A stretch of 64,000 nt of DNA, taken from NCBI GenBank assembly GCA_964611895.1, contig CAZTDN010000008.1, positions 13,328-77,327 on the forward strand, read 5' to 3'. Made by a program: the position numbers and the translations under genes. The notes below the pieces were generated by a model. That model saw nothing but the letters and a program-made list of their open reading frames with translations, searched no databases and was not told the origin of the DNA. The first letter of the stretch is position 1. Each line of letters opens with the position of its first letter. Positions 2,388-51,505 of this stretch are shown in pieces. The stretch comes from an uncultured Pseudobdellovibrionaceae bacterium. Its GTDB lineage: Bacteria; Bdellovibrionota; FAC87; UBA2466.

Positions 2388-2414
2388 GATTCTTGAATTT
2401 AGACTGCGCTACCA

Positions 2415-3404: not shown

Positions 3405-4126
3405 AATCTCGCGCAATCGTTTTGTCCCGAGAAAACTTTGGAGAAGCAGATCGATACATCCAGCTGTTTTCTCGAGACTGGGGACTCATCTCTGTTTTGG
3501 CCAAGTCCGCTCGAAAAAGTAAGCGCCGCTACGTGGGGGGCATGGACCTTTTCTGCCACAACGAAATCGTATTGCGCGGCGACCCTCGTGGAAAACCCTA
3601 CCTGGTTGAACTCACTGTTTTGAACTCTTTTACAGGGCTTAGAGAGGACCTCGATCGCCTGGTTGTGGCTGGAAAAGCCGCTCAGTGGGTGCGTCGCCTT
3701 TCCAATACGGCCGTGGCAATGCCCGGAGTCTACAGTTTGTTAGGACAGACTCTAGCTTTAATCGAAAAAACCGAAACGGAACGCTTGCCACTATTGCAGC
3801 TCATATTTCAAATCAAGTTTCTCGATCAGATCGGCCTCAAACCACGAATGGATGCTTGTGCTAAATGTTCCGAAGCGCTCGACAACGCAGCGGGTGTTTT
3901 TGATATCGATGCAGGAGGCCTTCTCTGTCGCCCTTGTCTGGGCGAAAGGACCGTCGCCCACTCCATGCGACTGGGAGAAGCAGAACAAGCATTGCTTGCC
4001 CAAGGTGAACGCCTCAAACTCACGCTATGGGATCAGTTTCAATTTCCGACCGATTCCACACGGAACCTTCTCCGACTCACCACCCAGTTTGCATCCTTTC
4101 ACACGCAGACACAGCTGCCGCATTAG
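3398..4126 (+). CDS. recO: DNA repair protein RecO
   Basis: MLKSRAIVLSRENFGEADRYIQLFSRDWGLISVLAKSARKSKRRY (RecO N-terminal OB fold) and a C-terminal Cys cluster CAKCSE...CRPC (zinc motif). ATG at 3398 overlaps the upstream stop (ATGCTGA). Confidence 0.8.
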   Translation: MLKSRAIVLSRENFGEADRYIQLFSRDWGLISVLAKSARKSKRRYVGGMDLFCHNEIVLRGDPRGKPYLVELTVLNSFTGLREDLDRLVVAGKAAQWVRRLSNTAVAMPGVYSLLGQTLALIEKTETERLPLLQLIFQIKFLDQIGLKPRMDACAKCSEALDNAAGVFDIDAGGLLCRPCLGERTVAHSMRLGEAEQALLAQGERLKLTLWDQFQFPTDSTRNLLRLTTQFASFHTQTQLPH

Positions 4127-5808
4127 TGATTTGGAAAAATCGCCGCTCTGCGCGCCTTGGCACCTGAGCTCACGTAGCGATAGTACGCCACGCCGATAAA
4201 CGCGATCTGCGCCAGAGCGTAGATCGACACATAGCCAGTGCCACCAGCGCCAAACCCATAAGAATGCAACCCTGCACCCAACACAAAATTGACTCCGTAC
4301 CAGGCCATCAAAACACCCAGAAACGACAACACGGCGGTTGCAGCAAAGCCGAACCCGCGCAACCACCCAGCAAAGCGCCCGTGGAGCACGGCCAAATAAA
4401 GCAACAAAGCTATCAGCGCCCAGACTTCCTTGGGGTCCCATCCCCAGAACCTACCCCAAGAATAATCTGCCCAGACACCCCCGAGGATTGTACCCGCTGC
4501 CAAAAGCACCACCCCGATTTGAATAGATCGGTACATGTACAAAGTTGCAAACTGAATGGACTCCGTTTTCTTTGGACGAAAGACGAACGTGCCCAACACC
4601 ACATTCCCCAAGCACAGCGATAGGGCAAACGCCGCATAGCTCAATGTAATGGTCAGCACGTGGATTGTGAGCCAGAAGTTGCTTCTCAATACTGGCTCCA
4701 GCGGCTGTATGCTGGGATCCAAAACCGAAGGCAGCGTGTCAGCTAAAACTAGGGCAACAATGGAAAACACCGATGCAGCAGCCGGAATCAAAGCCCGCCT
4801 GTAGGAAGCTCCAATAAAGAATGAGAAAAGCACGCAGCCCCAGCTCACCCAAATGACAGACTCGTACATATTGGTCACAGGCGGGCGCCCTGATATCAAC
4901 ATCCGCAAAACAAAACCAAGCGTGTGAATCGAAAAACCCAGAGCTAAAATGGCGGTTCCTACCCACTGCCAAAGTTTTACCGAAGTCACCAGGAATGCCG
5001 CCAACATTACAAACGCAATCAAATACGCCACCCATGCCCAACGAAACGGACGGAAGTGATTGTACAAGTATTCCCGTTTTAGCTCTGTAGCAGTGGGGTA
5101 CCCTTGTTGTACCAACCCGGTAGCCAACGCCCCCGCCAATTCCACACTCGCTTTGTTCCATTGCTCACCACTCTGTTTGGAGAATGCCTCCACCATCTGA
5201 GAGATGGGGCGTCGGACTGTTTCCACTGTAGCAGCGTTGTAGGGCAAAGGTTCCGCGGGATCATTAAGAGAGGCCAAAGACAACCAAGGGTCCTGAGTTC
5301 CGGTGGGCGGCGGGAGGACATTAAAAACCTGACCCGTGACCATCGCTTCGACCAAACCTAGCTGATTGTGAACATCGAGAAACTTCTTATCTAATGGCGA
5401 CAATCGATCACCCGATCGTTGTTTCTGCAAAGTCTCACGAATAGCGCTCTGCAGTTGAACGTTGTCCTTGAGTTCCTTGGGAGAAAAAAACTGCCTCCCC
5501 GCGTCTAAACCAGCCTTTTCTTTGAGTGGTCCATAGGCAACCCTCACAAAACGCTCGCTGGACCATTCAGTTTCGTAAGCCAACAACCAACCGAAAACGA
5601 CTTCGACCGCGGACAAACCGTTCCACTGGGTTTTGCCTGTGATAAATTGCACGCTTTCGATCGCGAAGGTATCCAACGGCTTGAGCCTGCCTCGGTCCTG
5701 AATAGCGTAAAGAGAGACGGCCTCCCAATCAAACCCCTCACGTGCCTTCGGGCCTGCTTCAGCGACCGTTCCCCATAAGAGAACTAAACTCATCAGTGTC
5801 TTCATCAA
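4123..5808 (-). CDS. ccsA: Cytochrome c biogenesis protein CcsA/ResC (System II haem handling, WWD domain)
   Basis: 561 aa polytopic membrane protein. Trp-rich WWD signature WADYSWGRFWGWDPKEVWAL; conserved His residues in flanking TM segments. Confidence 0.85.
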   Translation of the reverse strand: MMKTLMSLVLLWGTVAEAGPKAREGFDWEAVSLYAIQDRGRLKPLDTFAIESVQFITGKTQWNGLSAVEVVFGWLLAYETEWSSERFVRVAYGPLKEKAGLDAGRQFFSPKELKDNVQLQSAIRETLQKQRSGDRLSPLDKKFLDVHNQLGLVEAMVTGQVFNVLPPPTGTQDPWLSLASLNDPAEPLPYNAATVETVRRPISQMVEAFSKQSGEQWNKASVELAGALATGLVQQGYPTATELKREYLYNHFRPFRWAWVAYLIAFVMLAAFLVTSVKLWQWVGTAILALGFSIHTLGFVLRMLISGRPPVTNMYESVIWVSWGCVLFSFFIGASYRRALIPAAASVFSIVALVLADTLPSVLDPSIQPLEPVLRSNFWLTIHVLTITLSYAAFALSLCLGNVVLGTFVFRPKKTESIQFATLYMYRSIQIGVVLLAAGTILGGVWADYSWGRFWGWDPKEVWALIALLLYLAVLHGRFAGWLRGFGFAATAVLSFLGVLMAWYGVNFVLGAGLHSYGFGAGGTGYVSIYALAQIAFIGVAYYRYVSSGAKARRAAIFPNH

Positions 5809-7610
5809 CGTTTTCCTCCCACCAAGATGCTCCAGTAATGCGGGTTCATTAGGAACATCACCACAATCCCTAGCACCATGAGGATACTCCCCGCGTACTT
5901 AACCCAGCGGCCAGGATCGTAATTTACGCTGAAGACCGAGAGCGGTGGTTCACCTTCACGCATCTGATAACTCGCTTGATAGAATGTGTAACCTCCGTAT
6001 TTCAGTGGTTCATTCATGCTAATGTGGGCCTCCGGCTCCTTCGTGTTGCCTGGGTCTTTTACAATGACATCACTCTCGTAGGACGCCGCTTTGGTCGTAC
6101 CGGGATCCGTTTGCATGGTGAACTTCTTCAGGTGAATCTGAAACGGTAATTTCAGGCGGTCTTTTTCAAACCGCAAATCTAAGATACGATCTCCCATAGA
6201 GACACCTACCGAAGCGCCTTCCGGAAGCCACCAATCTTCGGGGGAGAGCGCCCCATTGGCGAGCTCTCTTTTTATATGTAAGGCCGAGCCAAAATTTTCC
6301 GCACCGACAATCTGATCCACGTACACAGGCAGGTCCTTCTGAATTGCGGCCGGCAACCACTTCTGCACCCGAAACTGCAGATCCATCCAACCTGTTGCTA
6401 CTGCTTTGCCAAGTTCCACTTTCCCCTGACTCAGTAGTTTTCCACCCTTTCCCTCGATGCGGTACAAGAGTTGTTGATCATTTTCGGCTTGAGCAAAGTG
6501 CAGCTTTCCGCGAAAACCGCCCGTGTCGTTGGGGGCTGGGGCGAACATTTTTAGGTCTACTCCAAAGGGCCTCACCGTCTCTTGTCCGGCGGTATGCTGC
6601 TTTGAAAACTCCGGAAAGCGAGAAAAAAGTGTGTGCCGCTCCTCTTGACCTTCGGCGTTCTTGAGCCGCAGCTGCACACAGGGGTTGACCAGCTCGGCGC
6701 TGCGGTTCACCAGACGATTGTTTTCTACAACTGCGTAGGTAAAATATTTTTCGATATAAACTGAGTACCCAGTGGACGCCACGGGCACCCAAGCGTTAAG
6801 TGCAGTGCGTATGTCTACTCTATAGGTTTTGCCAGCGATTTGAACTTGAACGTACCCCTTGCTCAAAGCGGGCGGAGGAACAAGTGCTTTCCCCGACTGA
6901 AAACTCGCCAAATCCCGCGCATTCCAGACCTTGCGAAACGTCAGCAAGGCAGGGCCGAGATTAACCTCGTTGGGAACGTCGATATTTTTCGCCAAGAGCC
7001 ACTCGCTGGTATCGAAACGGGAATTGAATAATTCCACCTGCAATGCTGGCACCCCAATGCCGGTAGAGGAAGGTTCTACTCCGCCTAGAACACGAGCTCG
7101 TGGAAAATATTCGTCTACAACGAGCTTTTCTCCTGTCGGCAGATCGACTTGGAGCAATCTCCCCTTTCGGGAACGTGCGGAATCGATTATTGGGAACGAT
7201 TGGCTCTTTCCAGCCTCCGCGTCCCCAAGAGTAAGCTGGTAATTGTTTAATACGACTTCGGAGTCTGATTGCCCCTCAACAACCGGCAAGTTTCCATCAA
7301 CGCCAAAACGCAGCGTCAAAAACGAGCCAAACAGAATCACTAAAATTCCCGCGTGGGTAACGACAAAGCCTGTCTGGTGTGGCTTCCACGGAAACCGGGA
7401 GAGCGCCGCGCAAAATACATTTACCGCTAATACGACGAGCAGAGCATAGAACCAAAGCCGCCCATAGACGAGTGCGTGCGCACCACGCATCCCATAGAGC
7501 GACTCCGCCACTGTGGCGACCGCAAGGACAATGGCCAAAGTCAGGATGGTGATCACCGCCAATTGCAAGGAAGAGAAAAATCGGAACAGTGGGTAGGATT
7601 TCCATTTCAT
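5805..7610 (-). CDS. ccsB: Cytochrome c biogenesis protein CcsB/ResB (Ccs1)
   Basis: 601 aa. N-terminal TM segments with KPHQTGFVVTHAGILVILFG (ResB signature), a large periplasmic domain and a C-terminal TM. 4-nt overlap with ccsA. Confidence 0.8.
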   Translation of the reverse strand: MKWKSYPLFRFFSSLQLAVITILTLAIVLAVATVAESLYGMRGAHALVYGRLWFYALLVVLAVNVFCAALSRFPWKPHQTGFVVTHAGILVILFGSFLTLRFGVDGNLPVVEGQSDSEVVLNNYQLTLGDAEAGKSQSFPIIDSARSRKGRLLQVDLPTGEKLVVDEYFPRARVLGGVEPSSTGIGVPALQVELFNSRFDTSEWLLAKNIDVPNEVNLGPALLTFRKVWNARDLASFQSGKALVPPPALSKGYVQVQIAGKTYRVDIRTALNAWVPVASTGYSVYIEKYFTYAVVENNRLVNRSAELVNPCVQLRLKNAEGQEERHTLFSRFPEFSKQHTAGQETVRPFGVDLKMFAPAPNDTGGFRGKLHFAQAENDQQLLYRIEGKGGKLLSQGKVELGKAVATGWMDLQFRVQKWLPAAIQKDLPVYVDQIVGAENFGSALHIKRELANGALSPEDWWLPEGASVGVSMGDRILDLRFEKDRLKLPFQIHLKKFTMQTDPGTTKAASYESDVIVKDPGNTKEPEAHISMNEPLKYGGYTFYQASYQMREGEPPLSVFSVNYDPGRWVKYAGSILMVLGIVVMFLMNPHYWSILVGGKR

Positions 7611-8449
7611 AAAAGTTCAATCTCCACTCCACCAGCTTGGAACTTAGTGTGGCCATCCCAAAAGTTCCTATAAACAAAAGCCAACCCCCGAGCAAATCGA
7701 TCCTTTTCTGGACTGGGGACGATCGATTGAAGCACTGCAGCTTTCTTACCCTCATGCACAAATTCAAGAGGAAGAACGCCCTGCAGGTACTCTCCGCGCA
7801 CTTCGACCGGAAACAGTTTTCGATTCACTTGTCCATAGGTAAAAATCCGTTCAACCACCTCTTGCCCTGGGTAGCAGCCCTTATTGCGATCTACGGCTTT
7901 TTCCAAACCGGCTTCCAGAACCATTACCGTGGAATCAATTTCGACCCCCACCCGTGCAAATCCCACAGACACCAGGTAGTAGTTTAACCACTGCTCGGTA
8001 AAATGCCCCTCTGGCGCGGGCACCTCCTGCATTGGCACGTGACACCACGAAACCGCTCGAGAAAACGGGTCATTCCACTCCAAGCCGGGCACTGAAACAA
8101 CCCCACTCCGTGCAAAAAGCCTCCAATCTGTAGAGACATCTTTGAACTCTAAATTCTCAGCAAAATGGTATCGCTCCAAATGCTCCAAAGCCGCTGCCGC
8201 GTTGCCCTGCGGGACGCAAAAATAAAACCCGTCAGAATGGGCTCGAAAAAAACCCAAAGCCACCACACCCGATCGTGCAGTCAAGAACGCCCCGAGACGG
8301 ACGGCGCTTGGATCCCAGTTTTTAAAGCTTAGGGTTGTCAGCCGATTGAGAAAATCCGCTGCGTCCGGCCCTTGAATAGAAAGCGTGGCCCAATCCAATC
8401 CCAATCGTCCAGCAGGAAGACTCAGCGCGCTTTCTTGCATGAGGGGCAC
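7607..8449 (-). CDS. YgfZ/GcvT-like folate-binding protein (Fe-S cluster repair/assembly factor family)
   Basis: 280 aa. KGCYPGQE motif characteristic of the YgfZ/aminomethyltransferase folate-binding fold. Overlaps ccsB by 4 nt. Confidence 0.65.
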   Translation of the reverse strand: MPLMQESALSLPAGRLGLDWATLSIQGPDAADFLNRLTTLSFKNWDPSAVRLGAFLTARSGVVALGFFRAHSDGFYFCVPQGNAAAALEHLERYHFAENLEFKDVSTDWRLFARSGVVSVPGLEWNDPFSRAVSWCHVPMQEVPAPEGHFTEQWLNYYLVSVGFARVGVEIDSTVMVLEAGLEKAVDRNKGCYPGQEVVERIFTYGQVNRKLFPVEVRGEYLQGVLPLEFVHEGKKAAVLQSIVPSPEKDRFARGLAFVYRNFWDGHTKFQAGGVEIELL

Positions 8450-8751
8450 TCACAGGTCTTGCGGAGCGAGTCGAAAGTATAAAAACCCGTGTCATGCCCA
8501 TCCGACCAAACAAATCGCAGGGCATACCGCCCTACAGATTCAATGCGCTTAGGTCTAATGTCTGCTGGAACCTTCTCGTCGTCCAAAATTTTTTCGCGCG
8601 TCCATTCATCCACGCAATGAGCGCATCGGCAATTCAGGCGCAAGCTGCGCACCCGATAAAAAGAACAGTGCCCATCGCTCCACACTATACCGAGATTGGA
8701 CGGGCTAAGCTGCTTGAGTTCAACGGGAACGACGTCTGCCATTATTGCCAC
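8422..8751 (-). CDS. DUF971 family protein (gamma-butyrobetaine hydroxylase-like N-terminal domain)
   Basis: 109 aa. Duplicated W-SDGH-S-Y ... LR..C.CA.C motif (VWSDGHCSFYRVRSLRLNCRCAHC; FVWSDGHDTGFYTFDSLRKTCECPSC). A classic neighbour of Mrp/ApbC. Confidence 0.6.
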   Translation of the reverse strand: MAIMADVVPVELKQLSPSNLGIVWSDGHCSFYRVRSLRLNCRCAHCVDEWTREKILDDEKVPADIRPKRIESVGRYALRFVWSDGHDTGFYTFDSLRKTCECPSCKKAR

Positions 8752-9536
8752 TCCAAGTTGAGCGATTGAAAATGATTTCCCGCGCCGACTTGTAAGCTAT
8801 CCAAGCGCGATACCACCTGATCGGCAATTTGGGAAAACTCCACAGCGGCAGGGGAGGATGGCTCGACCTGAATAATAGGCCGCCCCTTATCCCCACTCAC
8901 AACGATAGAAGACTGCAAAGGCACGGAGCCCAAAAAGGGAACTTGAAACTGGTCCGCCAAGACCCTCCCTCCGCCAGCGCCAAATACCTCTCCCGACATA
9001 TTTTCGACGACGCCTAAAATCGGCACTTTGACGTTCTGGAACATCATCAAACCTTTGCGAGCGTCAGCCAAACTCACTGCTTGGGGAGTTGTAACGATAA
9101 TGGCACCGGATAACGGCGCATTTTGGCTGATAGTCAGCTGCGCATCACCGGTTCCTGGGGGCATATCAATAAATAAATAGTCCAACTCTCCCCAATCTAC
9201 CTGGGTCAGAAACTGAGTCAGCGCTCCGTGTACCATGGGGCCTCGCCAAACCACCGGTTGATCGTCTGGGATCAAAAAACCCATCGACATGACCTTCACA
9301 CCGTCTTTGACCAGAGGAGTAACATGTGTCTCGGTAGCATCCGGTTTTTGATCTAACCCGACCATCAAAGGAAGGCTTGGCCCATAAATATCGGCGTCGA
9401 GAAGCCCGACTTTATGCCCAAGCTTAGCCAACGCAAACGCGAGGTTGGTGGTAACTGTGCTCTTGCCCACCCCGCCTTTGCCGCTGGCGACAGCAATTAA
9501 GTTGCGAACGGAGGGCATGGCGATTCGTTGTGACAT
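8742..9536 (-). CDS. mrp: Mrp/ApbC/NBP35-family iron-sulfur cluster carrier ATPase
   Basis: 264 aa. Deviant Walker A AVASGKGGVGKST, CxxC-containing ParA/MinD fold. Start may be the internal M (MPSVRN). Confidence 0.9.
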   Translation of the reverse strand: MSQRIAMPSVRNLIAVASGKGGVGKSTVTTNLAFALAKLGHKVGLLDADIYGPSLPLMVGLDQKPDATETHVTPLVKDGVKVMSMGFLIPDDQPVVWRGPMVHGALTQFLTQVDWGELDYLFIDMPPGTGDAQLTISQNAPLSGAIIVTTPQAVSLADARKGLMMFQNVKVPILGVVENMSGEVFGAGGGRVLADQFQVPFLGSVPLQSSIVVSGDKGRPIIQVEPSSPAAVEFSQIADQVVSRLDSLQVGAGNHFQSLNLEWQ

Positions 9537-9647
9537 AAGTACCTCAGTTAGAAAGTCCTACATTTCTAGCCCTAATGTAACCAAAAGGCAAAAAAAGCGC
9601 CGGAGAGTTCCCTTGCAAAGTCGAGTCAGCGCACGCTAAAAACACGC

Positions 9648-10892
9648 ATGGGTCCATCGACGAGAATGTCTCGGCCGCGCACGCCGCCTTGGAGCGACTG
9701 GGGGTATTACCTGCTCTGCCTCGAGGCTTTGACGGCCCTGGTTTTCGTTACCTTTCGCCCCACTGCTTGGCACTACGTCATATTCTCCGAGCCCGGGCCT
9801 TTTCTATGGAATGGGGGCAACCCTTACGGACACACTTTTTCCTATGGAACTACGGGTTATTTTTATTCACCCGCCTGCGCCATGCTTTTCTTCTCCTGGT
9901 TTGCGTGGATGCCCGAGCGCATTGGCCAATTTGTGTACTTGCTCGTCTCACTCAGCATTCTCTTCCTGGGCACCCGTGCGTTCTTGCAAGCATTGCTCAC
10001 GTCGCTGGGGTGGGATTTTTGGAAAAGTCGGTACCGAAACTGGGTTTGTCTCTTAGTGAGCTCTGAGTTGATCGGATCCATCCTAACCACCAAGCTGGAG
10101 CTGCTGATGGTTGGAGTCACGCTGTACGCGTTTTCTCTTTTGCTCACCGGGCGACGCCCACTGCTCGCGGGGTTGTGCATGGGTCTACTGCTCAACTGGA
10201 AATTTCAGCCACTTCCTATTATTGGCCTCGTTACTCTCGGCCTGGGCTTTATAAACCGGAAAACAGCGATCCGGTTTGCGCTGGGCGTAGTGGCAGTGGT
10301 CATATTGTTAATGCCGCTTCCTTTCCCGTTTCAGTCTTGGGATGCGACGATCAAAATTCACTCCGCATGGAAAGAGTCGCTTAGCGCGTTCATCGAGCGT
10401 GACTGGCTCGCATTTCATCATCTTTTCACTTTCTTGAACCACGGACTCGGAATTGAGGTTCCCTACCGAATCGCACAAGGGATCAGCGCCGGGGCTGGCC
10501 TTGCTCTCGCCGCGGGACTTGCAGTGTGGCTCCAAGGAGTCCCCAGAGCAGACAAAGCGCGTCTGCAGAAAATACTCCTGATTGCGCTGACAATGGGCTG
10601 CGGCTTTATTGTCTGCCTTTCGCCGCTGAGCCAGTCCAATGCTTATATCTGGTACGCGCCCATGGTGCTGGTTTTTGCTTGGGCCGCAGAACGAACCGGC
10701 GCGAGACCTGGTTGGGTAGGGCTGGTGTTGGGGATGACTTTTATCTTGGTGTCGATCCTCTATTCAGACCTTTGCCCCAGACCCTTGTACAAACTCGTCT
10801 TCGCCAAAGGCATCAAACCCGTGGGAGCGTTGTTTCTGCTTCTGTCGACGCTATCCTTACTAAAGAGATTACGTTCTAGCGACGTCGGTTGA
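9648..10892 (+). CDS. Polytopic membrane protein, DUF2029/GT-C (GT87-like) glycosyltransferase-like
   Basis: 414 aa with about 10 TM helices. Conserved loop GNPYGHTFSYGTTGYFYSPACAMLFF resembles the DUF2029 mannosyltransferase-like family. Start uncertain (9648 or 9666). Confidence 0.4.
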   Translation: MGPSTRMSRPRTPPWSDWGYYLLCLEALTALVFVTFRPTAWHYVIFSEPGPFLWNGGNPYGHTFSYGTTGYFYSPACAMLFFSWFAWMPERIGQFVYLLVSLSILFLGTRAFLQALLTSLGWDFWKSRYRNWVCLLVSSELIGSILTTKLELLMVGVTLYAFSLLLTGRRPLLAGLCMGLLLNWKFQPLPIIGLVTLGLGFINRKTAIRFALGVVAVVILLMPLPFPFQSWDATIKIHSAWKESLSAFIERDWLAFHHLFTFLNHGLGIEVPYRIAQGISAGAGLALAAGLAVWLQGVPRADKARLQKILLIALTMGCGFIVCLSPLSQSNAYIWYAPMVLVFAWAAERTGARPGWVGLVLGMTFILVSILYSDLCPRPLYKLVFAKGIKPVGALFLLLSTLSLLKRLRSSDVG

Positions 10893-12003
10893 GGGAATTA
10901 GGAGTTCGGCCGGACTTTTTGTATAGAGCATCCACAGCGGCCTGCTGATCCCGCTGGTGCTGCTCCCCCACGGAGAATCCCAGAGTGTACATTCCCCAAA
11001 GAGACGCTCCAATGCCCACTGCGATGGCCCAGGGGATCCATTTGGCGGGAGCACGCAAAGGTTTGAGCTCCTGCAGTGCTATTTTAGACTCCAAAAGCAC
11101 TTCCTCGTCGAGAAAGCGCAGAATCAGTTCTTCTGGGCGGCTGCTGTAAGTAGGCCCCAGAAATTTTTCCAACTCAGCAATGAGCTCGCGAACCCCCTCG
11201 TAGCGAGCATCGGGATCTTGTTTGAGGCACCGAGTGACAATGCGATCCAGAACCACCGGTATTTTGGCGTTCATCTTCCGAGCCGGAACGTATTTTGCTT
11301 CTCGAATGCTTTGAAAAACCGTCCCTCCCCCTTCTGCTTTGAATGGGCGACTTCCCGTCAGCATTTCGTAAAAACTGATCCCCAGTAAAAAGAGATCCGA
11401 CTGGGGGGTGATTACATCGCCCAGGACTTGTTCGGGAGAGAGATAGCTTGGGGAACCCACCATCATCCCAGGCCGGGTCAGCGAAGTGTCTTCTACTTGG
11501 AGAGCAATTCCAAAATCCATCAGCTTGACGCCCCCTCGGGACGTTAGACGAATGTTGGATGGCTTGATGTCGCGATGAATAAGCCCATTGGCATGAATGT
11601 GGTAGAGCCCACGCGCGATACCCAACGCGATCGCAGCTGCTACCTCGGGGGGTAAAGCGCCCAGCTTTTCGATTGCGGTGGAAAGATCGATTCCTTCAAT
11701 GTGCTCCATTAGGATATAGGCTTCGCCGGGAGCCTCGATGAAATCGTACACATGGGCAATGTTCTGATGCAGAACACTCGCCAAGGCGCGCGCCTCTCTG
11801 CGAAAACGTTCGATGGCATCTTCGTTTCTCAGCAAATCCTCTTTGAGTCGTTTGATCACGACAAAGCGACCGAGCGCCGGTTGAAAAGCGCGGAACACGT
11901 AGGCCATTCCACCCGTAGCAATAAGCTGCACTTGCTCCAATTGGCTGCGTAGTGCACTCGAGTTTAAGTCGGGTGCCTGTGGAGGTGGTGAATTCTGGTT
12001 CAT
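10876..12003 (-). CDS. Hanks-type serine/threonine protein kinase with C-terminal TM anchor
   Basis: 375 aa. ATP-binding VIKRLK, catalytic loop HRDIKPSNIRL, DFGIA, SPE motif. One TM helix after the kinase domain (WIPWAIAVGIGASLWGMYTLGF). Confidence 0.85.
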   Translation of the reverse strand: MNQNSPPPQAPDLNSSALRSQLEQVQLIATGGMAYVFRAFQPALGRFVVIKRLKEDLLRNEDAIERFRREARALASVLHQNIAHVYDFIEAPGEAYILMEHIEGIDLSTAIEKLGALPPEVAAAIALGIARGLYHIHANGLIHRDIKPSNIRLTSRGGVKLMDFGIALQVEDTSLTRPGMMVGSPSYLSPEQVLGDVITPQSDLFLLGISFYEMLTGSRPFKAEGGGTVFQSIREAKYVPARKMNAKIPVVLDRIVTRCLKQDPDARYEGVRELIAELEKFLGPTYSSRPEELILRFLDEEVLLESKIALQELKPLRAPAKWIPWAIAVGIGASLWGMYTLGFSVGEQHQRDQQAAVDALYKKSGRTPNSLNRRR

Positions 12004-42765: not shown

Positions 42766-43383
42766 CTAAATCTTGCGTTGCAAGCCGACGACCTTTCCCT
42801 GGATCTGGAAGGCTTTATCGGTGACCGCAATGGGTTTCATTTTCTTGTTTTCCGGAACGAGGAAAACTCCCTGCGCCGTTTCCCGGTATCGTTTCACAGT
42901 GGTTTCGCCCCCTACCAAGGCAACAACAATGTCTCCGTTTCGCACGCGGGACCCAGTTTCCACTATCAAGTGGTCGCCCTCTAGGATCCCTGCTTCGATC
43001 ATGCTGTCTCCGACAACACGCAGGGCAAAACTAGGTTTTGCAGAAGTATCCTCTGAAACTAAAACAGACCCCAACTCAACTTGGGGCGTGTCCCTCAAGG
43101 GCCCTGCAGCGATTTCTCCGTAAATAGGAATCCGTTGAGTCCCCTGCGGTCGAAATCCCGCTGGAAAAAGCCCCCGCGCCTTGCGTCCGTTTTTGGCAGT
43201 TTTAGGATCGTCTAAGTAGCCCTTGCGGATCAGCGCTTTGACATACCCTTGAACTGTTCCCACGGCCTTAAAACCAAAGTGGTCTTGGATTTCACGGTAA
43301 GAGGGCGGCGCGCCATGAGTGGCACACGTGTCTTTAATAAAGTTCAAGACATCTTGTTGCGAACTCGTCAGCGGGCTTTTCAT
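42766..43383 (-). CDS. lexA: LexA repressor (S24 peptidase)
   Basis: Winged-helix N-terminus; Ala-Gly cleavage region; GDSM motif VVGDSMIEAGI; Lys in TTVKRY. Start taken at MKSPLTS (43383). Confidence 0.9.
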   Translation of the reverse strand: MKSPLTSSQQDVLNFIKDTCATHGAPPSYREIQDHFGFKAVGTVQGYVKALIRKGYLDDPKTAKNGRKARGLFPAGFRPQGTQRIPIYGEIAAGPLRDTPQVELGSVLVSEDTSAKPSFALRVVGDSMIEAGILEGDHLIVETGSRVRNGDIVVALVGGETTVKRYRETAQGVFLVPENKKMKPIAVTDKAFQIQGKVVGLQRKI

Positions 43384-43409
43384 TTTTTTCTTTTTCCCCC
43401 TACCAAAAA

Positions 43410-43425
43410 CATACAAATGTATGTA
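43410..43425. promoter_or_regulatory. Candidate LexA operator: 16-bp palindrome ACATACAAATGTATGT in the lexA / imuA divergent intergenic region
   Basis: Perfect 7-bp inverted arms (ACATACA / TGTATGT) with a 2-bp centre, sitting in the 52-bp gap between divergent lexA and the imuA-like gene. Confidence 0.45.
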
Positions 43426-43435
43426 TGTCATAAAA

Positions 43436-43894
43436 ATGGGCCTTTTGTCTAGTTCTACTTCTTCTTTAAACGCTCGGGGAGGGTTAACCCAGGTCCTCGC
43501 CCAACAAACCCTCGCTCCTGTTCAGGCCACCTTAAACAAAGCTTTAGAATCCTCTCACACTGACGAAGATTATTTTTTCTGGGCCTCAGACGAGGGCATC
43601 CTCTATCCCGAGGCCCTTTTATACCGCTGGAAAATCCCTCTCTCACGGTTCTTATTAGTACAAGCACGGGATGCCTCTGAAGTTTGGCGCCTGGGGTTAG
43701 AAGCCTCTCAAACAGGGCTATTTCGCCTTCTTTTCCTCAGAGCTTCTCGGCTCTGCCATCTCCCCCTATTGAGAAAACTCCAACTCTGCGCCGAGAAAAA
43801 CCAGTGTGATGTTTTTATCCTCACCCACACCCCCCTTCCCCATTGGACACTCAAAAAATGCGGACCCTTTATATCCAAAGCCCACACTCTTTAA
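43436..43894 (+). CDS. imuA: ImuA-like protein (short ImuA' type) of the imuA-imuB-dnaE2 mutagenesis cassette
   Basis: About 152 aa from ATG 43436. Call based mainly on synteny (divergent from lexA, followed by imuB and dnaE2). No Walker motifs, consistent with ImuA' variants. Confidence 0.5.
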   Translation: MGLLSSSTSSLNARGGLTQVLAQQTLAPVQATLNKALESSHTDEDYFFWASDEGILYPEALLYRWKIPLSRFLLVQARDASEVWRLGLEASQTGLFRLLFLRASRLCHLPLLRKLQLCAEKNQCDVFILTHTPLPHWTLKKCGPFISKAHTL

Positions 43895-45081
43895 GCGTTC
43901 TGGCGGAGAGCTGTTTTGCGCTCACCCCCAAAGTTACCTTGTGCGGTCTGCACCACCTGTACCTGGATATCCAGCCCACTTTGCGTGCTCTCGGAGGCGA
44001 AAACACAATCTGGTCTCACGCTGAGCATCTCACTGAGACTTTTGCCTCCTCGTATCAAATGATTCTTGTCGACAGGCCCGAGTGGGCACGCGCGCTGGTG
44101 CAAAAAACTCCAGAGCGTATTCCAACCGGAAAAAGCGCGGCCAGGCTCAAGCTCCTGCCTATTGAAAAACTTTTTTTCATCGGAGATCCACTCACTGAGA
44201 ACGCCGCAGAAAAAAAACGGCTCATCGTTTTTTTAAAAAAAGTCGGCATGCGGACCATTGGGGATTTTATCGCCATTCCAACAGCCTCGATCTTGCGGCG
44301 TTTTGGAAAAGAAGGGGAATCTCTCCACCTCTATGCCAAAGGGAACACCTCTCTTTGTTTGCCTTTATATGCCCCTCAAGATCTTATTGAGACATTTATA
44401 GATGCTGATGAGTTTTTCTCTTTAGATGCACTTTTGTTTAGTTTGCGACAAGCTCTTATCCGAATAGAAGCTCGCTTGCGAGGACGCGCCCTATCCGCGC
44501 GTTCTATTCAGCTCACTTTTCATCTAGAATCTCACCCGCCTATCGCCAAAACCCTACCACTCAACGAACCACTCCAAGAAGCTCAGGCGATATTGCGCAT
44601 CCTCAAGGAATTTCTGCAGAACCTTCACTGGGAGTCGCCCCTAGTGCGACTCCATCTCAAAATTATCGAAACAGCACCCCACACCCCTGGCCAGCTCTCC
44701 CTTTTGGATGATTTTGAAAACAAGTCTCACTCACTTGCGCATTATGTCGCAAGGCTCCGGGCCCGCTTAGGAGAAGATAGAGCGGGTTTTGCCCTTCTCC
44801 ACTCCAGCCACTTGCCCGAACAGTCTTTTTCTCTATCGTGGCCAGCACGCTCTGCCTGTGACCATCGAGACCCTTTCCCCGAACGCCCGCTTTTTCTGTT
44901 CTCTCCCCCACGGCCTTTTTCTCTTTCGCCACTGTGGAAACTAGAGCCCACTGAGTCTCTTTTTACTCAGTGGTGGGAATCAGGAGGGACCAGAGAATAT
45001 TTCACTGCCCGAAAGGAAAGTGAATGCCTGTGGGTTTACCGTACCCCAAGTGGAGAATGGTTTGCTCATGGCGTTTTCTAG
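43858..45081 (+). CDS. imuB: ImuB: Y-family DNA-polymerase-like protein (catalytically inactive paralogue)
   Basis: About 407 aa, between the imuA-like gene and dnaE2. Y-family palm/fingers-like N-terminal region; overlaps both neighbours. Confidence 0.7.
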   Translation: MRTLYIQSPHSLSVLAESCFALTPKVTLCGLHHLYLDIQPTLRALGGENTIWSHAEHLTETFASSYQMILVDRPEWARALVQKTPERIPTGKSAARLKLLPIEKLFFIGDPLTENAAEKKRLIVFLKKVGMRTIGDFIAIPTASILRRFGKEGESLHLYAKGNTSLCLPLYAPQDLIETFIDADEFFSLDALLFSLRQALIRIEARLRGRALSARSIQLTFHLESHPPIAKTLPLNEPLQEAQAILRILKEFLQNLHWESPLVRLHLKIIETAPHTPGQLSLLDDFENKSHSLAHYVARLRARLGEDRAGFALLHSSHLPEQSFSLSWPARSACDHRDPFPERPLFLFSPPRPFSLSPLWKLEPTESLFTQWWESGGTREYFTARKESECLWVYRTPSGEWFAHGVF

Positions 45082-48000
45082 ACCCTTTGCTGAACTTGCC
45101 GCCAAGAGTAATTACTCTTTCCTAGAAGGTGCCTCTCACCCAGAAGAACTCGTCACTCAGGCCAAAGCACTGGGCTACAGAGCGCTTGCTGTGGTGGACC
45201 GCTTGGGTGTGTATGGAAGCCCTCGATGCCATATCGCCGCAAAAGCGCAAAGGCTCCATTTCATCGTCGGAGCAGAAGTCCCTGTCGAGGGAATGCGGGC
45301 GCTGCTGCTCGCCAAAAACCGCAACGGCTACGGCAACCTATGTGAACTGCTTACCACTGCGCACTCTGACCGAGACAACCCCACTGCCCCGCTCGAAACC
45401 CTATTGTCTTTTTCAAAGGACTTGTACCTGTTGCTTCCCGCATGGAAACTCCCCACCGAAAAAGTCCCTCTGCTTCAAGAGGCTTTTGGGAAGAATCTAT
45501 CTCTTCTTGTTAGTCTAGCTCTGGATGGTTGCGACAAAGCCCGCCTTTCGGCCGCCAAGCAAGCCTCAAAGCAATTCCAACTCTCCTGCACCGCGAGCAA
45601 CGAGCCGCTTTTTCACGAACCACAACGTAAACCCTTGCAAGATGTTCTCACCTGCATCCGCCATGGTTGCACTTTAACTCAGGGAGGAACTCGACTACTG
45701 CCCAATGCGCACCGTTGTTTAAAGTCACCCGAGCAAATGTATGCGCTCTTTTCTCAACACCCGGAGTGGGTACAGCACTCAGTGGAAATCGCCTCTCAAT
45801 GCGCTTTTTCTCTCGACGAGATCCGGTACCGATACCCAACAGAATGGATCCCGAGCAACCACACCGGGGACTCGTACTTGGCAGAACTCGCGTGGGAGGG
45901 AGTCAAGAAACAGTATGGCCACAATCCTTCAAAAAAAGTACAAGAACTCCTAAAGCAAGAGCTCTCGCTGATCCAAGAGCTGGAGTACAGCGATTATTTT
46001 CTCACGATTTGGGACATAGTCTGTTTTGCGCGATCTCAGGGGATCTTGTGTCAAGGGCGCGGCTCGGCGGCCAATTCTTTGGTTTGTTATGTATTAGGAA
46101 TCACGTCGATTGACCCGGCTCACTTGGATCTTTTGTTTGAACGTTTTATTTCTCGTGAAAGGCGAGAACCTCCTGATATTGACATCGACTTTGAACACGA
46201 ACGCCGCGAAGAAATCATTCAGTACATTTATCAACGGTATGGCAGACACCGCGCTGCGATCACCGCAGAAGTGATTTGCTTTAGAAAACGATCTGCGTTG
46301 CGAGAGGTCGCCAAGGTTTTTGAAATATCGATTGCCACAGTGGAATCTCTCCAGACGTTAACGCACCGTCGATCTTTGGATGAAATCGATTTGAAGGCTC
46401 TGCAATCAACGGCCACGTCTGTTCCCTCTGAAAAAATGGCTTTGTACTTTTCGATGGTCCGAGCCATCCGGTCTTTTCCCAGACATTTGGGCACCCATGT
46501 GGGTGGGTTTGTTCTGTGCCAAGATGCTCTGTCACGCAATGTCCCCATTGAAAAAGCCGCGATGGAAAACCGGACTATTGTCCAATGGGATAAGAACGAC
46601 CTCGATGCGTTGGGCTTTGTGCGGGTGGATATCTTAGGTTTGGGAATTCTTACTGCTATTCGAAAAGCGTTTGATCTTATCCAACAGAGCCGTGGTGTTT
46701 CTTGGACACTTGCGTCTTTGCCCAGGGAGGATCCTGCTGTTTATGACTCTGTTTGTGCGGCTGATACTGTGGGTGTTTTTCAGATTGAGTCGCGTGCGCA
46801 GATGAACATGCTCCCACGGCTTCGCCCTCGTTGTTTTTATGATTTGGTGATTGAGATTTCTCTGGTTCGACCAGGACCGATACAGGGCGACATGGTGCAC
46901 CCGTACTTAAAGCGACGCAATGGAGAGGAGCGTATTGAGTACGCACACCCGGAGCTAGAGGCCATCTTAAAAAAAACCTGTGGGGTTCCTTTGTTTCAGG
47001 AACAGATCATGAAAATAGCCATGACAGTCGCAGGTTTTACCGGGGGCCAGGCTGACGAGCTGCGACGCGCGATGGGATCGTGGCGACGCGACGGGCACAA
47101 TCGACTGAGCAGCTTGGGAGATAGGTTTCGTCAGGGGCTTATCGATCGGGGAATCTCTGTCGACTATGCGCAACGTGTTTTTCAACAGATTGAGGGGTTT
47201 GCCGAGTATGGGTTTCCGGAGTCTCATGCGGCTTCGTTTGCAGTACTCGTCTATGCCACGGCTTACCTGAAGCACTATTATCCCGATGCGTTTCTTGCGG
47301 CTTTGCTCAACTCTCAGCCCATGGGGTTTTACAGTCCACACAGTCTTTTGCACGATGGAATGCGGCACGGGGTTAAAGTGGATGGCATTTCAATTCAAGA
47401 ATCTTTTTGGGACAACACGATTCCAAGCCCCATGCATTTGCGTTTGGGGTTTCGACAAATCCGTGGCTTCCGCAAGCAAGTCGCATTTGCCATTGAGTCT
47501 GCACGCGCGAGTGGGTTTGGCTCTTTTGAAGACTGTATTGAGAAAACAGCCCAGGCTTTGCGCCCCACTGCCCTCACAAAGCGAGATCTATTTGGCCTCG
47601 CAGGGGCCGGAGCTTTTGAGTGCCTGGGAATTTCTCGCAGGCAAAGCCTGTGGGAGATCCAGAAAATGGCTTTGGCGGATAGCTTTGCTTTTCAAGCCAC
47701 CGAAGTACCTTTTGAGCTCCCAGTCGAAGAGGATTGGGAGCGGATTTCCTCGGACTATGAAGCACAGGGGGTGTGCTTGCATACGCACCCGGTTTCTTAT
47801 TTTAGAGAGGAGCTGAGTGGTCAGGGGGTAGTGTCTTCGGACAGGTTGAAGAACTGCGTAGAAAACCAGCGCATTCAAGTGGCTGGGTTAGTGATTTGCC
47901 GGCAGCAACCGCCAACAGCATCGGGAGTGCTTTTTATCACGCTCGAAGATGAGGGAGGCTTTATCAATCTGGTGATTTGGAAAAAGGTCTTTGAGCAGTA

Positions 48001-48160
48001 CCGCGAGGCGCTTCTGACTCAGTCTTTTTTGGTTTGTGGGGGGCGCATTCAGCGTGCTCAGGGGACGCAGGTGACGCATGTTTTGGTAGATAAAGTAGCC
48101 CCTCTTCTGGCTGTATACAACGAGCCTTGGGCCGGGCCGATTTCTTATGATTTTCATTAA
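45068..48160 (+). CDS. dnaE2: Error-prone DNA polymerase DnaE2 (ImuC)
   Basis: N-terminal PHP domain FAELAAKSNYSFLEGASHPEEL; Pol III alpha core with catalytic GVFQIESRAQMNM... region; OB fold at the C-terminus. About 1030 aa. Confidence 0.9.
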   Translation: MAFSRPFAELAAKSNYSFLEGASHPEELVTQAKALGYRALAVVDRLGVYGSPRCHIAAKAQRLHFIVGAEVPVEGMRALLLAKNRNGYGNLCELLTTAHSDRDNPTAPLETLLSFSKDLYLLLPAWKLPTEKVPLLQEAFGKNLSLLVSLALDGCDKARLSAAKQASKQFQLSCTASNEPLFHEPQRKPLQDVLTCIRHGCTLTQGGTRLLPNAHRCLKSPEQMYALFSQHPEWVQHSVEIASQCAFSLDEIRYRYPTEWIPSNHTGDSYLAELAWEGVKKQYGHNPSKKVQELLKQELSLIQELEYSDYFLTIWDIVCFARSQGILCQGRGSAANSLVCYVLGITSIDPAHLDLLFERFISRERREPPDIDIDFEHERREEIIQYIYQRYGRHRAAITAEVICFRKRSALREVAKVFEISIATVESLQTLTHRRSLDEIDLKALQSTATSVPSEKMALYFSMVRAIRSFPRHLGTHVGGFVLCQDALSRNVPIEKAAMENRTIVQWDKNDLDALGFVRVDILGLGILTAIRKAFDLIQQSRGVSWTLASLPREDPAVYDSVCAADTVGVFQIESRAQMNMLPRLRPRCFYDLVIEISLVRPGPIQGDMVHPYLKRRNGEERIEYAHPELEAILKKTCGVPLFQEQIMKIAMTVAGFTGGQADELRRAMGSWRRDGHNRLSSLGDRFRQGLIDRGISVDYAQRVFQQIEGFAEYGFPESHAASFAVLVYATAYLKHYYPDAFLAALLNSQPMGFYSPHSLLHDGMRHGVKVDGISIQESFWDNTIPSPMHLRLGFRQIRGFRKQVAFAIESARASGFGSFEDCIEKTAQALRPTALTKRDLFGLAGAGAFECLGISRRQSLWEIQKMALADSFAFQATEVPFELPVEEDWERISSDYEAQGVCLHTHPVSYFREELSGQGVVSSDRLKNCVENQRIQVAGLVICRQQPPTASGVLFITLEDEGGFINLVIWKKVFEQYREALLTQSFLVCGGRIQRAQGTQVTHVLVDKVAPLLAVYNEPWAGPISYDFH

Positions 48161-48256: not shown

Positions 48257-48730
48257 ATGATACGAATTGTTTTGATTCTGCTCGCGTTGATCCAGGCCAT
48301 TGAGACGTTTGCTTCGAACGGGCTGTGCAGCTCGATGGGCTCACCAAACATCCCAGGGTATGACTACCGAAACTGTGGGTCGTACTGGACGCCTACCGAA
48401 GGGGCGGTGTTGTCGATTTACAAGTCGGAACAGTACACGGGTTCGACGCATGTGTACCATGTAACGGTGGAGTTCTACCAAAGCACGATAGACATTACGA
48501 ACTACGTTTCATGTCGTGTGGTTGAAGTGGTAAAGCGCAGTGGATCGACCAAAAGCAGAAAGACTTTGGGATCGTTCGCCCCGCAAACTAACGGCCCGAA
48601 CCAGCGGTATTCTTATACGAGCACGTTTGTAGAGAAAAAGAATTACGAAGTGTACTACTCGCTGCAGTGCCGGGAAGCGTGGAGCATGAGCTACCAGACA
48701 GTAGCCGAAGCGGAAGATTCCGACCCCTAA
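48257..48730 (+). CDS. Small secreted hypothetical protein (157 aa, 4 Cys)
   Basis: Signal peptide MIRIVLILLALIQAIETFA. AT-rich upstream region (48161-48256). Sits in a lower-GC stretch after dnaE2. Confidence 0.45.
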   Translation: MIRIVLILLALIQAIETFASNGLCSSMGSPNIPGYDYRNCGSYWTPTEGAVLSIYKSEQYTGSTHVYHVTVEFYQSTIDITNYVSCRVVEVVKRSGSTKSRKTLGSFAPQTNGPNQRYSYTSTFVEKKNYEVYYSLQCREAWSMSYQTVAEAEDSDP

Positions 48731-48884
48731 CAGAAATACTAACCGTTGCCGTGGAAGAGGTGGTTTGGTACAGGATAGGTCTTCTTTTTAGGGGGCCCGT
48801 AGCTCATCTGCCCAAAGGGAGCAAAGCGACCGTTTCAATGGTTGTGCTCTCCCAGATGAGCGACGCGATCTCCGAAAATTATGG

Positions 48885-48960
48885 GGGCCCGTAGCTCATC
48901 TGGGAGAGCGCCACAATGGCATTGTGGAGGTAGCGCGTTCGATCCGCGTCGGGTCCACCA
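48885..48960 (+). tRNA. tRNA-Ala (anticodon GGC)
   Basis: Folded by hand: acceptor GGGCCCG/CGGGTCC with the G3:U70 Ala identity pair, D-arm GCTC-ATCTGGGA-GAGC, anticodon stem CCACA/TGTGG with loop ATGGCAT (U33, GGC, A37), 5-nt variable loop, T-arm GCGCG-TTCGATC-CGCGT, discriminator A, encoded CCA. Confidence 0.9.
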
Positions 48961-49074
48961 ATCCCCTTTCAATAAAAAGGGCTCTACTCCATCCGAGGAG
49001 CCACCCCCGTCCCTTCTCCCTCTACGGACCAGTCCATAGACGCCCAAAAAATCGCCGATCGGTGTTTTGAGCAG

Positions 49075-49440: not shown

Positions 49441-49508
49441 TTTGTTTTAGTTGATTATTGGGAGCACAGCTTGTTTTGCAAAGGTTCGCTGCAGTACAAT
49501 TATCTCAA

Positions 49509-50252
49509 ATGATTCTACGCGCCATCCTTTTCGGCCTATTGCTGGGTTTCGGCGCGTCCATTGGAGCGGCCGAAGAACACGCGAACAGTGCTGTGGAGTC
49601 ATCGGAGGAACCGCACTCCCCTGTCCTGGCAAAGCTGGAACAACCACCCAAAGACTCCTCGACTGATTTGGAAAAGCAGGCATCGAAGGTGCGTGAACGA
49701 TTGAGGTCACTGGACAAGGATATCATCACCTCGAAAGCAAAAGTCGATACCCTTGAACCTTCGGCCAATTCGATACTCAAACGACGTGAGCAACTCCAAG
49801 TTGAAGCCTTTAAACTCAGCCGCACTGACCAAAATCGAAATCGCCTACTGCAAGAAATGAAGCAGTTATCCGCTGAGCTAAAACCCTATGAAGAGGCCAA
49901 AACAGAATTGGAGAATTTAAAGTTCGAACGGCGAAAGTTTATTGATGATTCAACGGAAGTTGCCATGAAGTACAATAACTACCTCCGACGCCAGCTTCTT
50001 GAGACCACGAACAACACGAACACCTCGGATGCCATCCCGGATACGGTTTATGAAAAACTAAAATCGCTCACATTGGAAACGGGATACACACTGAACCTAC
50101 CAATGATAGGCCTGGGTGGGGGAATTCGTGTTCCAGAACGTTTTGGTGAAGATCACTTTATTGATCGGTCCCTCTCTGAAGACATTCGGAATATCGATCT
50201 TGTAAATCACATGCGCTGGATCAACGAGAACTACCGTCGTAGCCTAAAATAA
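49509..50252 (+). CDS. Secreted coiled-coil protein, hypothetical
   Basis: Start at MILRAILFGLLLGFGASIGAAEE (signal peptide). Central heptad-rich region (KVRERLRSLDKDIITSKAKVDTLE...EEAKTELENLKFERRKF). Lower GC than flanking genes. Confidence 0.5.
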   Translation: MILRAILFGLLLGFGASIGAAEEHANSAVESSEEPHSPVLAKLEQPPKDSSTDLEKQASKVRERLRSLDKDIITSKAKVDTLEPSANSILKRREQLQVEAFKLSRTDQNRNRLLQEMKQLSAELKPYEEAKTELENLKFERRKFIDDSTEVAMKYNNYLRRQLLETTNNTNTSDAIPDTVYEKLKSLTLETGYTLNLPMIGLGGGIRVPERFGEDHFIDRSLSEDIRNIDLVNHMRWINENYRRSLK

Positions 50253-50347
50253 TGAATCTTAAAAACAGACTGTTATTTAGAATTGAATCCAATTCCACTA
50301 TGTCCCTTTGCAGGTAGGATCAAATGCGGATTGAAACAAAAAAAAAC

Positions 50348-51505
50348 ATGCGATCACCTAAATCGATCCAATGTCTTTCCATGGCTGCGCGGCTTTGTTT
50401 AGCTGTTTTCCTGTTGCCGGTGCTCTTACTCGCTGAGCATCGCACTGGTGACCCCACCCCATCAAAGTCACGCACCACAAATAAATACCGAAGGTGTTTC
50501 TGCGTTTTTCATGCGAACCCTGCAAACAAATCCTATCTATGCTCGCTGGCTGGAAGGGATTCCTTCAATGACCGTTCCGGAGAGTGGGAGAAGGCGCCTA
50601 AGGGGATTTTTGCACAGACCGAGGTGAAAACCATGGGAGCTTGCCGCTCTTGGTGCGACCATGAGTTTGAGAACAAGAAAGATCTCTATTGCAGCTACTC
50701 CCAGCTATCTCTCACAAGCACAGGTGTCCCGGTGGAAGAGCGAACCCAGCTGCAAATGGAGGCGTGCCGTCAACAAGGAATCGAACTCCCGCCCCGTCCT
50801 TTCAGCAAGGGATGGATCCAGTTAAAGGACGATGCTGGAAACACGGTGATTCCCGAATCCGACTTGTGGGTTAAAACAGGAGATGCCGCACTGTGGAAGT
50901 GGGTTTCTGCTTCTGCGAGCACGACTTGTGTCGGGATGAGACGCTTCGATCCAAAAGATCTCCCCTCTAACAATGCAACTGGAATTATTTGTTGGGCCAA
51001 GAACGGTGCGGGAGAATGTCCTACCTGTTTTTTTGATACCCCTCAATCCGCGCCCTCCCCAGATGGAAAAACCCTCGGAGATGAATTGCATGCCTATCGC
51101 CACCATCAGACCATCGACTCGAGCCCTGGGGAGGTTTGCACCGCCTGCCATGCTAATAAATCCAATCCACTCCTCTTTTCTCCTAGAATGAAGTCTTTCC
51201 TCCCAAAGTCCCCCGACTGCAAAAGTTTTGCTGCTGTGGGTTTTGAAATGCATCGACCTCCCGTGATCGAAAGGCGCCTTACTAACAACAAGGCCCTGGA
51301 GTCTTGCGCTGCATGCCACCCTGGCTGGGAAAAGGAATTCAATATCTCCTCGCCCTACGCGATGACTGTGCTCCGGCAAGCATTGAAGAAAGATAAGCAC
51401 GGAACTCCTTACATGCCTATGGGAGGGACTGACAAGGAGGATGAGGCCGTGCGCCTTCTGAATGAGATGGTCGATGAAATCCGGTCGAATGTCTTAGGTC
51501 GCTAG
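50348..51505 (+). CDS. Secreted Cys-rich protein with two CXXCH haem-c binding motifs (putative dihaem c-type cytochrome domain)
   Basis: Signal peptide MRSPKSIQCLSMAARLCLAVFLLPVLLLA. CTACH and CAACH about 47 residues apart in the C-terminal third, plus 12 or more other Cys. Confidence 0.55.
   Translation: MRSPKSIQCLSMAARLCLAVFLLPVLLLAEHRTGDPTPSKSRTTNKYRRCFCVFHANPANKSYLCSLAGRDSFNDRSGEWEKAPKGIFAQTEVKTMGACRSWCDHEFENKKDLYCSYSQLSLTSTGVPVEERTQLQMEACRQQGIELPPRPFSKGWIQLKDDAGNTVIPESDLWVKTGDAALWKWVSASASTTCVGMRRFDPKDLPSNNATGIICWAKNGAGECPTCFFDTPQSAPSPDGKTLGDELHAYRHHQTIDSSPGEVCTACHANKSNPLLFSPRMKSFLPKSPDCKSFAAVGFEMHRPPVIERRLTNNKALESCAACHPGWEKEFNISSPYAMTVLRQALKKDKHGTPYMPMGGTDKEDEAVRLLNEMVDEIRSNVLGR

Follow-up and report, generated by a model that had tools for sequence, protein, structure and literature searches.

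The window considered here, a stretch of 64,000 nucleotides of bacterial DNA in which positions are counted from the first letter, carries on its plus strand a gene for tRNA-Ala(GGC) at 48885–48960, downstream of a cassette for SOS mutagenesis. This cassette (42766–48160) comprises lexA on the minus strand (42766–43431), a divergent ORF of 191 amino acids, an imuB-like gene (IMS_C, 43843–45081) and dnaE2 (45020–48160), as assigned with Pfam; a FabH-like gene lies upstream. The 191-aa ORF, which has no Pfam match, is imuA-like by its position. Synteny of the block, FabH included, extends to most of the relatives described below. Between dnaE2 and the tRNA gene is found an ORF of 157 amino acids (48257–48730), the product of which is alone in its 90%-identity cluster and starts with what looks like a signal peptide. 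On the other side, a search of 5.8 billion proteins with a protein of 258 amino acids (49476–50252) retrieved nothing but the query. For neither product does Pfam give a match that passes the curated cut-off, and the two ORFs on either side of the tRNA seem to be orphans. Further downstream, a protein of 393 amino acids (50324–51505) contains two CxxCH motifs and shows a weak, sub-threshold match to the cytochrome domains of MtrC/MtrF; it may be multihaem. From about 62669 to the end of the window at 64000, and beyond it (1032–9991 of the overlapping contig L090), a cluster of genes for a sheath, a T4 gp19-type tube, CIS_tube, a gp25-like baseplate and an AAA ATPase resembles a contractile injection system or a phage tail. 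No tRNA gene was detected in the approximately 10 kb that follow the right end of the window.

The identification of the tRNA, proposed initially from the letters of the sequence, was confirmed by ARAGORN and by the Rfam tRNA model, which scored 52.9 bits in a focused scan against a gathering score of 29. The whole-window run at the Rfam gathering score listed no tRNA, a blank that is taken to be a filter miss. The gene is intact. It displays the features of a functional bacterial tRNA-Ala gene: a cloverleaf recognized by the tRNA models, the G3:U70 identity pair and conservation in relatives, the G3:T70 pair and the encoded CCA end being visible directly in the window.

What makes this locus unusual lies just upstream. 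The sequence GGGGGCCCGTAGCTCATCTG is an exact direct repeat of 20 nt, present at 48791–48810 and at 48883–48902 (20 matches out of 20, established by reading the sequence and with a repeat finder). It consists of two flanking G residues followed by nucleotides 1–18 of the tRNA (tRNA positions −2 to +18). The two copies start 92 nt apart and are separated by 72 bp. These are the only matches in the whole window, even when as many as three mismatches are permitted, while the number expected by chance is 0; the search for further copies that could stand as distal att repeats, suggested in the initial annotation, thus yielded no third copy in the window. In the interval between the repeats, GCTCTCCCAGATGAGC at 48846–48861 is the exact reverse complement of 16 nt of the D arm (48894–48909). 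This inverted copy, too, had been pointed out initially, and it proved to be the core of a longer match of 28 nt, 48838–48865 against 48890–48917, with 86% complementarity according to the repeat finder, so that nucleotides 6–33 of the tRNA are represented in inverted form 24 nt away from their source. In local alignment the inverted copy scores 36, whereas 300 shuffled sequences averaged 15.7 and reached 24 at most. Among the 79 tRNA genes of the DNA that we fetched, this gene alone, as found here and in a second assembly described next, is preceded within 150 nt by an inverted copy of at least 13 nt.

The same arrangement, identical, is present in a second NCBI assembly (L001, GCA_013565695.1, contig JACCDT011107710.1). 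This contig differs from the window by two SNPs, both located outside the arrangement. An assembly artefact, which had been raised as a possible explanation of the repeats, is unlikely, because two assemblies with two SNPs between them are identical over this stretch. L001 and L090 bear a contig number so high as to suggest that they belong to a huge eukaryotic or metagenomic WGS project containing the bacterium.

As a result of its composition the region preceding the tRNA makes up a quasi-palindrome of about 94 nt (48785–48878), predicted to fold into an interrupted hairpin of 36 bp, six of them G-U pairs, with a free energy of −40.4 kcal/mol (z = −4.1). The stem of 9 bp noticed at first, pairing 48802–48810 with 48853–48861, is real and constitutes the core of this larger hairpin. 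RNA made from the minus strand would reach −31.9 kcal/mol, which leaves the leader hairpin 8.5 kcal/mol more stable than its complement. This difference is not significant (p of about 0.14 by simulation), and strand asymmetry was accordingly dropped as a sign of selection at the RNA level. On the transcribed strand the hairpin counts six G-U pairs against a single C-A mismatch (binomial probability of about 0.06), an excess that is a weak hint of RNA-level constraint. A role as a terminator was ruled out, the hairpin having neither a T-run nor a terminator call on either strand. ARAGORN detected no tRNA on the minus strand inside the insert, and an Rfam scan of the region by E-value gave, besides the tRNA itself, just weak sub-threshold matches to miRNA hairpins.

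Related lineages and the ancestral leader

Relatives were recovered by searching a large protein collection with DnaE2 (65–72% identity), and their contigs were then fetched. The nearest available relative has a DnaE2 only 72% identical to that of the window. The closest GTDB species representatives by the same protein, at 54–58% identity, are MAGs labelled Pseudobdellovibrionaceae or 'Proteobacteria', and in none of them is a tRNA found beside dnaE2. The source organism belongs to a poorly sampled lineage.

Seven lineages (L092/L093, L094, L095, L096, L097/L098, L106 and L107) keep lexA, imuB and dnaE2 with tRNA-Ala(GGC) downstream, and the alignment with orthologous tRNA-Ala loci recommended at the outset was made with them. 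The tRNA of L107 is truncated by the end of its contig, so that six complete copies could be compared. Five of these (L092, L095, L096, L097 and L106) are identical to the tRNA of the window at 76 positions out of 76, although the corresponding DnaE2 proteins are only 65–72% identical; the copy of L094 is identical over 74 nt and its CCA end is not encoded. The tRNA is thus conserved, while no tRNA-derived sequence, direct or inverted, was found upstream of it in any of the seven lineages. A wider search in JGI metagenome contigs retrieved no exact match to the 3′ part of the tRNA, and its 25-nt 5′ end in seven contigs, which correspond to five distinct loci of unrelated organisms, none having upstream copies.

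What the relatives do share upstream of the tRNA is a bipartite motif, TTGCCG-N12-TTTGRTA, which has nine matches in the 2.49 Mb of fetched DNA, each located just upstream of this tRNA-Ala(GGC). In the window it reads TTGCCG-N12-TTTGGTA (48746–48770, plus strand). It was located at 9879–9903 in L092, 10601–10625 in L094, 9776–9800 in L095, 9120–9144 in L096 and 9874–9898 in L097. In addition to the nine matches, it is present in L106 (14315–14339) and in L107. A scan for the sigma-70 consensus did not call it at 48746–48770. The motif can nevertheless be read as a −35 box (TTGCCG) and a spacer of 17 nt containing TG, followed by a weak −10 box (TAnnnn), and it is probably the clade's tRNA promoter, a putative one with a non-consensus −10.

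The spacing of this motif is instructive. It precedes the real tRNA by 21 nt in L092 and by 24 nt in L094; in the window it sits 22 nt before the upstream partial copy. Furthermore, the bases that separate the motif from the partial copy, CAGGATAGGTCTTCTTTTTA (48771–48790, plus strand), resemble the short leaders of L094 and L092 (GTCTTC...AGG, then GGGCCCG), with GTCTTC and the terminal AGG common to the window and L094. Both the spacing and this likeness indicate that an ancestral short 5′ leader, together with the ancestral promoter, now abuts the partial copy, and that 92 bp were added before the rest of the tRNA. As judged from these comparisons, the lineage of the window has acquired, as an autapomorphy, a derived insertion of 92 bp that separates the promoter-like motif from the tRNA, since the arrangement is absent in the seven relatives and the motif lies 22 nt before the upstream copy. 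In the relatives, the leaders that extend from the motif to the tRNA vary between 21 and 56 nt and have unrelated sequences, showing that this spacer tolerates change. Because the conserved promoter-like motif is located upstream of the partial copy, the insert is probably transcribed together with the tRNA, as a leader of about 105 nt.

Origin of the insertion

The best reading of the insertion is that of a scar, left by a templated insertion or by a template switch. We regard it as fairly likely that this lineage-specific insertion of 92 bp arose by a process of the template-switch or repair type, that it is now carried in a leader of about 105 nt and that it is probably devoid of a selected function. 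It looks like a recent copying accident rather than a conserved control element, since seven related lineages lack it. Its components would be a duplicated stretch of 20 bp, made up of the tRNA 5′ end and two flanking bases, plus 72 bp that include the reverse-complement copy of nucleotides 6–33. The presence of two bases foreign to the tRNA in the duplicated segment argues that the duplication took place at the DNA level. An error of replication or of repair synthesis, with a template switch or a snap-back at a tRNA gene prone to form hairpins, would account for the direct–inverted–direct pattern. The insert would now make most of the 5′ leader transcribed with the tRNA. In the RNA the inverted segment would pair either with the upstream copy, forming the leader hairpin, or, more stably, with the 5′ half of the real tRNA. 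A selected function of the insert is improbable, and it may lower or alter the maturation of the tRNA.

A reverse-complement copy of a nearby sequence that creates a perfect stem is a signature of template switching during replication (PMC8794818, PMC5453318). The quasi-palindromic events described under the Ripley model, the four-point model of Loytynoja and Goldman (PMC5453318) and the work of Monttinen and Loytynoja (PMC8794818) share with the present case a reverse-complement copy restricted to one lineage, a perfect stem (16 bp exact here) and a location in the region of a transcribed RNA gene; here, moreover, the source is itself hairpin-forming, the tRNA having D and anticodon hairpins. 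In keeping with these descriptions, a nearby sequence has been copied as its reverse complement in the window, and this state is derived with respect to the outgroups. The difference lies in what remains: the described events are usually explained wholly by one switch and return, unlike the window insert, which amounts to 92 bp with a 20-bp direct duplication and with 44 nt that have no local template. These 44 nt fall into two segments (48811–48837 and 48866–48882) that match no local template beyond chance, so that a single simple template switch, in the four-point sense, is insufficient.

The first segment, X, of 27 nt (48811–48837, plus strand), forms the apical part of the leader hairpin. 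The second, Y, of 17 nt (48866–48882, plus strand), is immediately followed by the second copy of the repeat and the tRNA. No source was found for either of them. X has no significant match in the local sequence on either strand, in the rest of the window, in the 106 fetched loci, in the leaders of the relatives or in viral contigs. Y has no match above chance in the local region on either strand, in the rest of the window, in the 106 loci or in the relatives' leaders. The junction between the inverted copy and Y gave seven viral 18-mer matches, which are due to chance since their flanks are unrelated. Within the 72 non-duplicated bases, only the inverted segment of 28 nt is therefore traceable to local sequence. 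Two simpler derivations were considered. Decay of a tRNA, or of the ancestral leader of L106 and L107, looked plausible by eye as the origin of X and Y and did no better than shuffled sequences; a tandem duplication of a 92-nt unit with the whole tRNA was rejected, the 72 nt not aligning to tRNA nucleotides 19–90. Counted from the sequence in the register of the exact core, Y pairs imperfectly with 48785–48801 (10 Watson-Crick and 3 G-U pairs out of 17), and for this reason the inverted copy may once have reached into the flank.

Exact cores of 20 and 16 nt in an otherwise imperfect palindrome could reflect several events, gene conversion or selection; they fit recency and constraint alike. 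Larger rearrangements of the same layout are on record: Kugelberg et al. reportedly described, in 2010, direct–inverted–direct 'tandem inversion duplications' in Salmonella, on a scale greater than that of the window insert. Mixtures of direct and inverted templated insertions have been described for synthesis-dependent end joining (PMC2943611), and the microhomology-mediated form of that process produces the same direct–inverted–direct copies of flanking sequence and leaves at the junctions short segments whose source is unclear. Both those end-joining products and the Salmonella duplications were characterized in experiments, either at breaks that had been induced or under selection, whereas the present event is read from its sequence. 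That the insertion lies next to an imuB–dnaE2 mutagenesis cassette is probably fortuitous, since this gene order was already ancestral.

As a mutational event it belongs to a type already known, of which it adds one more example. It offers a clean natural case of templated insertion at a tRNA gene, with an ancestral state that can be recovered from seven relatives, and it illustrates how a single mutational episode can create, from nothing, a long and nearly perfect RNA hairpin together with a leader that is antisense to its own gene.

Predicted folding and possible function of the leader

When the stretch 48780–48965 is folded, as the initial annotation had advised, a very strong structure is predicted (z = −5.8). 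For the full precursor the minimum free energy is −89.4 kcal/mol, against −74.8 kcal/mol for the best fold that keeps the cloverleaf. In the minimum-energy fold the anti-tRNA segment and the 5′ half of the real tRNA are predicted to form a hairpin of 26 bp, and the acceptor stem is built with the upstream copy. Over the ensemble, this copy is paired to the 3′ acceptor strand of the tRNA (P = 0.92–1.0), and the anticodon and T arms are preserved. For the genuine acceptor and D stems the probability is 0.00 in this precursor, as compared with 0.56–0.99 in the precursors of all seven relatives. Folded alone, the leader is predicted to form its hairpin, with the upstream copy paired to the anti-tRNA segment. 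Pairing of the inverted copy with the upstream copy, as first proposed, is thus feasible; the partner that the prediction prefers, the real tRNA, had been missed. The upstream copy and the real 5′ end being identical over 20 nt, one can be exchanged for the other on the anti-tRNA segment without energy cost over that stretch.

In bacteria, cleavage by RNase P is known to depend on how the leader is structured, as exemplified by a synthetic RNase P riboswitch (PMC7897497) and by pairing between the leader and the RCCA sequence (PMC9433436). Considering the predicted misfold together with this influence of leaders on RNase P, the insertion plausibly lowers maturation, or diverts cleavage to 48792/48793, which would release a tRNA-like RNA of 168 nt. 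Protection of the tRNA by a leader hairpin that would form co-transcriptionally is not assumed here. The cited systems resemble the window in that the structure of the leader decides on processing, the window leader being predicted to sequester the 5′ half of the tRNA; they differ in that they are designed or biochemical systems, whereas this leader is a natural one, known from its sequence and from predicted folds.

From there it is a short step to imagine a selected cis-acting leader: a folding switch of three segments (upstream copy, anti-tRNA segment and real 5′ half) that would throttle maturation by RNase P or yield the 168-nt tRNA-like RNA. The very strong predicted structure (both over 48780–48965 and in the leader alone), the high probability with which the upstream copy takes over the 3′ acceptor strand while the anticodon and T arms are kept, the exactness of both cores, the six-to-one ratio of G-U pairs to C-A mismatches on the transcribed strand and the precedents for control of RNase P cleavage by leader structure would all be in line with it. 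Against this stands the fact that the seven related lineages all lack the arrangement although their tRNA and promoter-like motif are the same, which argues against a conserved function. None of these lineages shows the structure, no described family of riboswitch, T-box or attenuator was matched, the Rfam matches were limited to the weak miRNA-hairpin ones and no terminator-like site was seen; the strand asymmetry is not significant. Above all, any direct–inverted–direct duplication generates the same competing pairings without selection. We therefore find a selected leader unlikely. Less credence still is given to a working RNA folding switch, where RNase P would release either the normal tRNA-Ala(GGC) or the 168-nt product; the latter would keep the G3:U70 acceptor stem, a D-like arm, the anticodon arm, the T arm and the CCA end, and would carry an extra domain of about 85 nt at position 26. 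Were it true, it would be a natural, newborn case of a leader that controls the maturation of its tRNA, or else of a large domain inserted into a tRNA.

Of the functional roles put forward in the initial annotation, a structured leader that affects processing is hence plausible as a consequence of the insertion, given the motif upstream and the predicted competition between folds, and is not retained as a conserved, selected role, being absent from all the relatives; as for a decoy for tRNA-binding factors, nothing was found in its support. Under the preferred reading of an accidental templated insertion, two outcomes can be contemplated. If the misfold is real, tRNA-Ala(GGC) is impaired in this lineage or processed in an unusual way, which would amount to a small natural experiment on how tRNAs mature. 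If the precursor folds normally, the insertion is an ordinary scar, of no wider consequence.

Recombination and mobile elements as unlikely alternatives

The initial annotation had also considered a scar of site-specific recombination. A scar it is in the broad sense, namely a derived 92-bp insertion absent from seven lineages; the site-specific part of the proposal is not supported, because the repeat belongs to the 5′ end of the tRNA, its copies are 92 bp apart with an inverted copy between them, and no integrase-like Pfam family was assigned to the neighbouring genes that were called. In such a scenario, the 20-mer would be the core of an att site, duplicated when an element integrated into the 5′ part of the tRNA gene (the D loop), and the element would later have been mostly deleted. 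In favour of this possibility, the repeat ends within the symmetric D stem-loop, and the same tRNA is a hotspot of integration in the relatives. Indeed, L096 has a partial copy of the 3′ half of the tRNA, from nucleotide 31, about 2.1 kb downstream (11352–11460). L106 has a copy of nucleotides 52–72 about 2.2 kb downstream (near 16713) and a further, degenerate copy of the 3′ end about 200 nt downstream (near 14670). The genes found downstream of the tRNA also differ between lineages, with a terminase in L095 and toxin–antitoxin and HTH genes in L096. These 3′ copies look like classical integrase att scars, which would make the tRNA an integration hotspot in the clade.

The window does not follow the same pattern. 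Att duplications at tRNA genes are said, after Williams in 2002, to cover the 3′ part of the gene. Such repeats start at the anticodon loop or the T loop and run to the 3′ end, and they flank an integrated element, in most cases one with an integrase gene. The partial copies of the relatives are of this kind, while the repeat of the window is the 5′ end. Genomic islands and prophages likewise leave a partial direct copy of a tRNA beside an intact gene; the window copy differs from these in being a 5′ end, placed upstream at a distance of 92 bp, with an inverted copy and without an element. Just 72 bp separate the two copies, leaving neither element nor integrase between them; att sites would not be expected to contain an inverted fragment of the tRNA; the genes called in the neighbourhood include none with an integrase-like Pfam family; and the window has no further copy of the 20-mer. 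Finally, the sole viral contig that contains the first 18 nt of the tRNA has them inside its own tRNA-Ala(CGC) gene. A remnant of integrase-mediated recombination is, all considered, very unlikely.

As improbable as the folding switch is a small palindromic mobile element of the MITE or REP type having one arm that resembles the tRNA 5′ end, for although in shape the quasi-palindrome of 94 nt is typical of them and X and Y are without local source, no other copy of the insert was found in the 64-kb window, in the approximately 10 kb beyond it (L090) or in about 1.2 Mb of related loci, and an exact match of 20 nt including two flanking bases is not expected from an unrelated element; an assembly artefact is less likely again, in view of the two assemblies mentioned above. 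On the 3′ side of the tRNA (48961–49000), two short sequences are shared with relatives: ATCCCCTTTCAA is common to the window and L095 (9928–9939), and GGCTCTACTCCATCC to the window and L096 (9321–9335), at a different distance from the tRNA.
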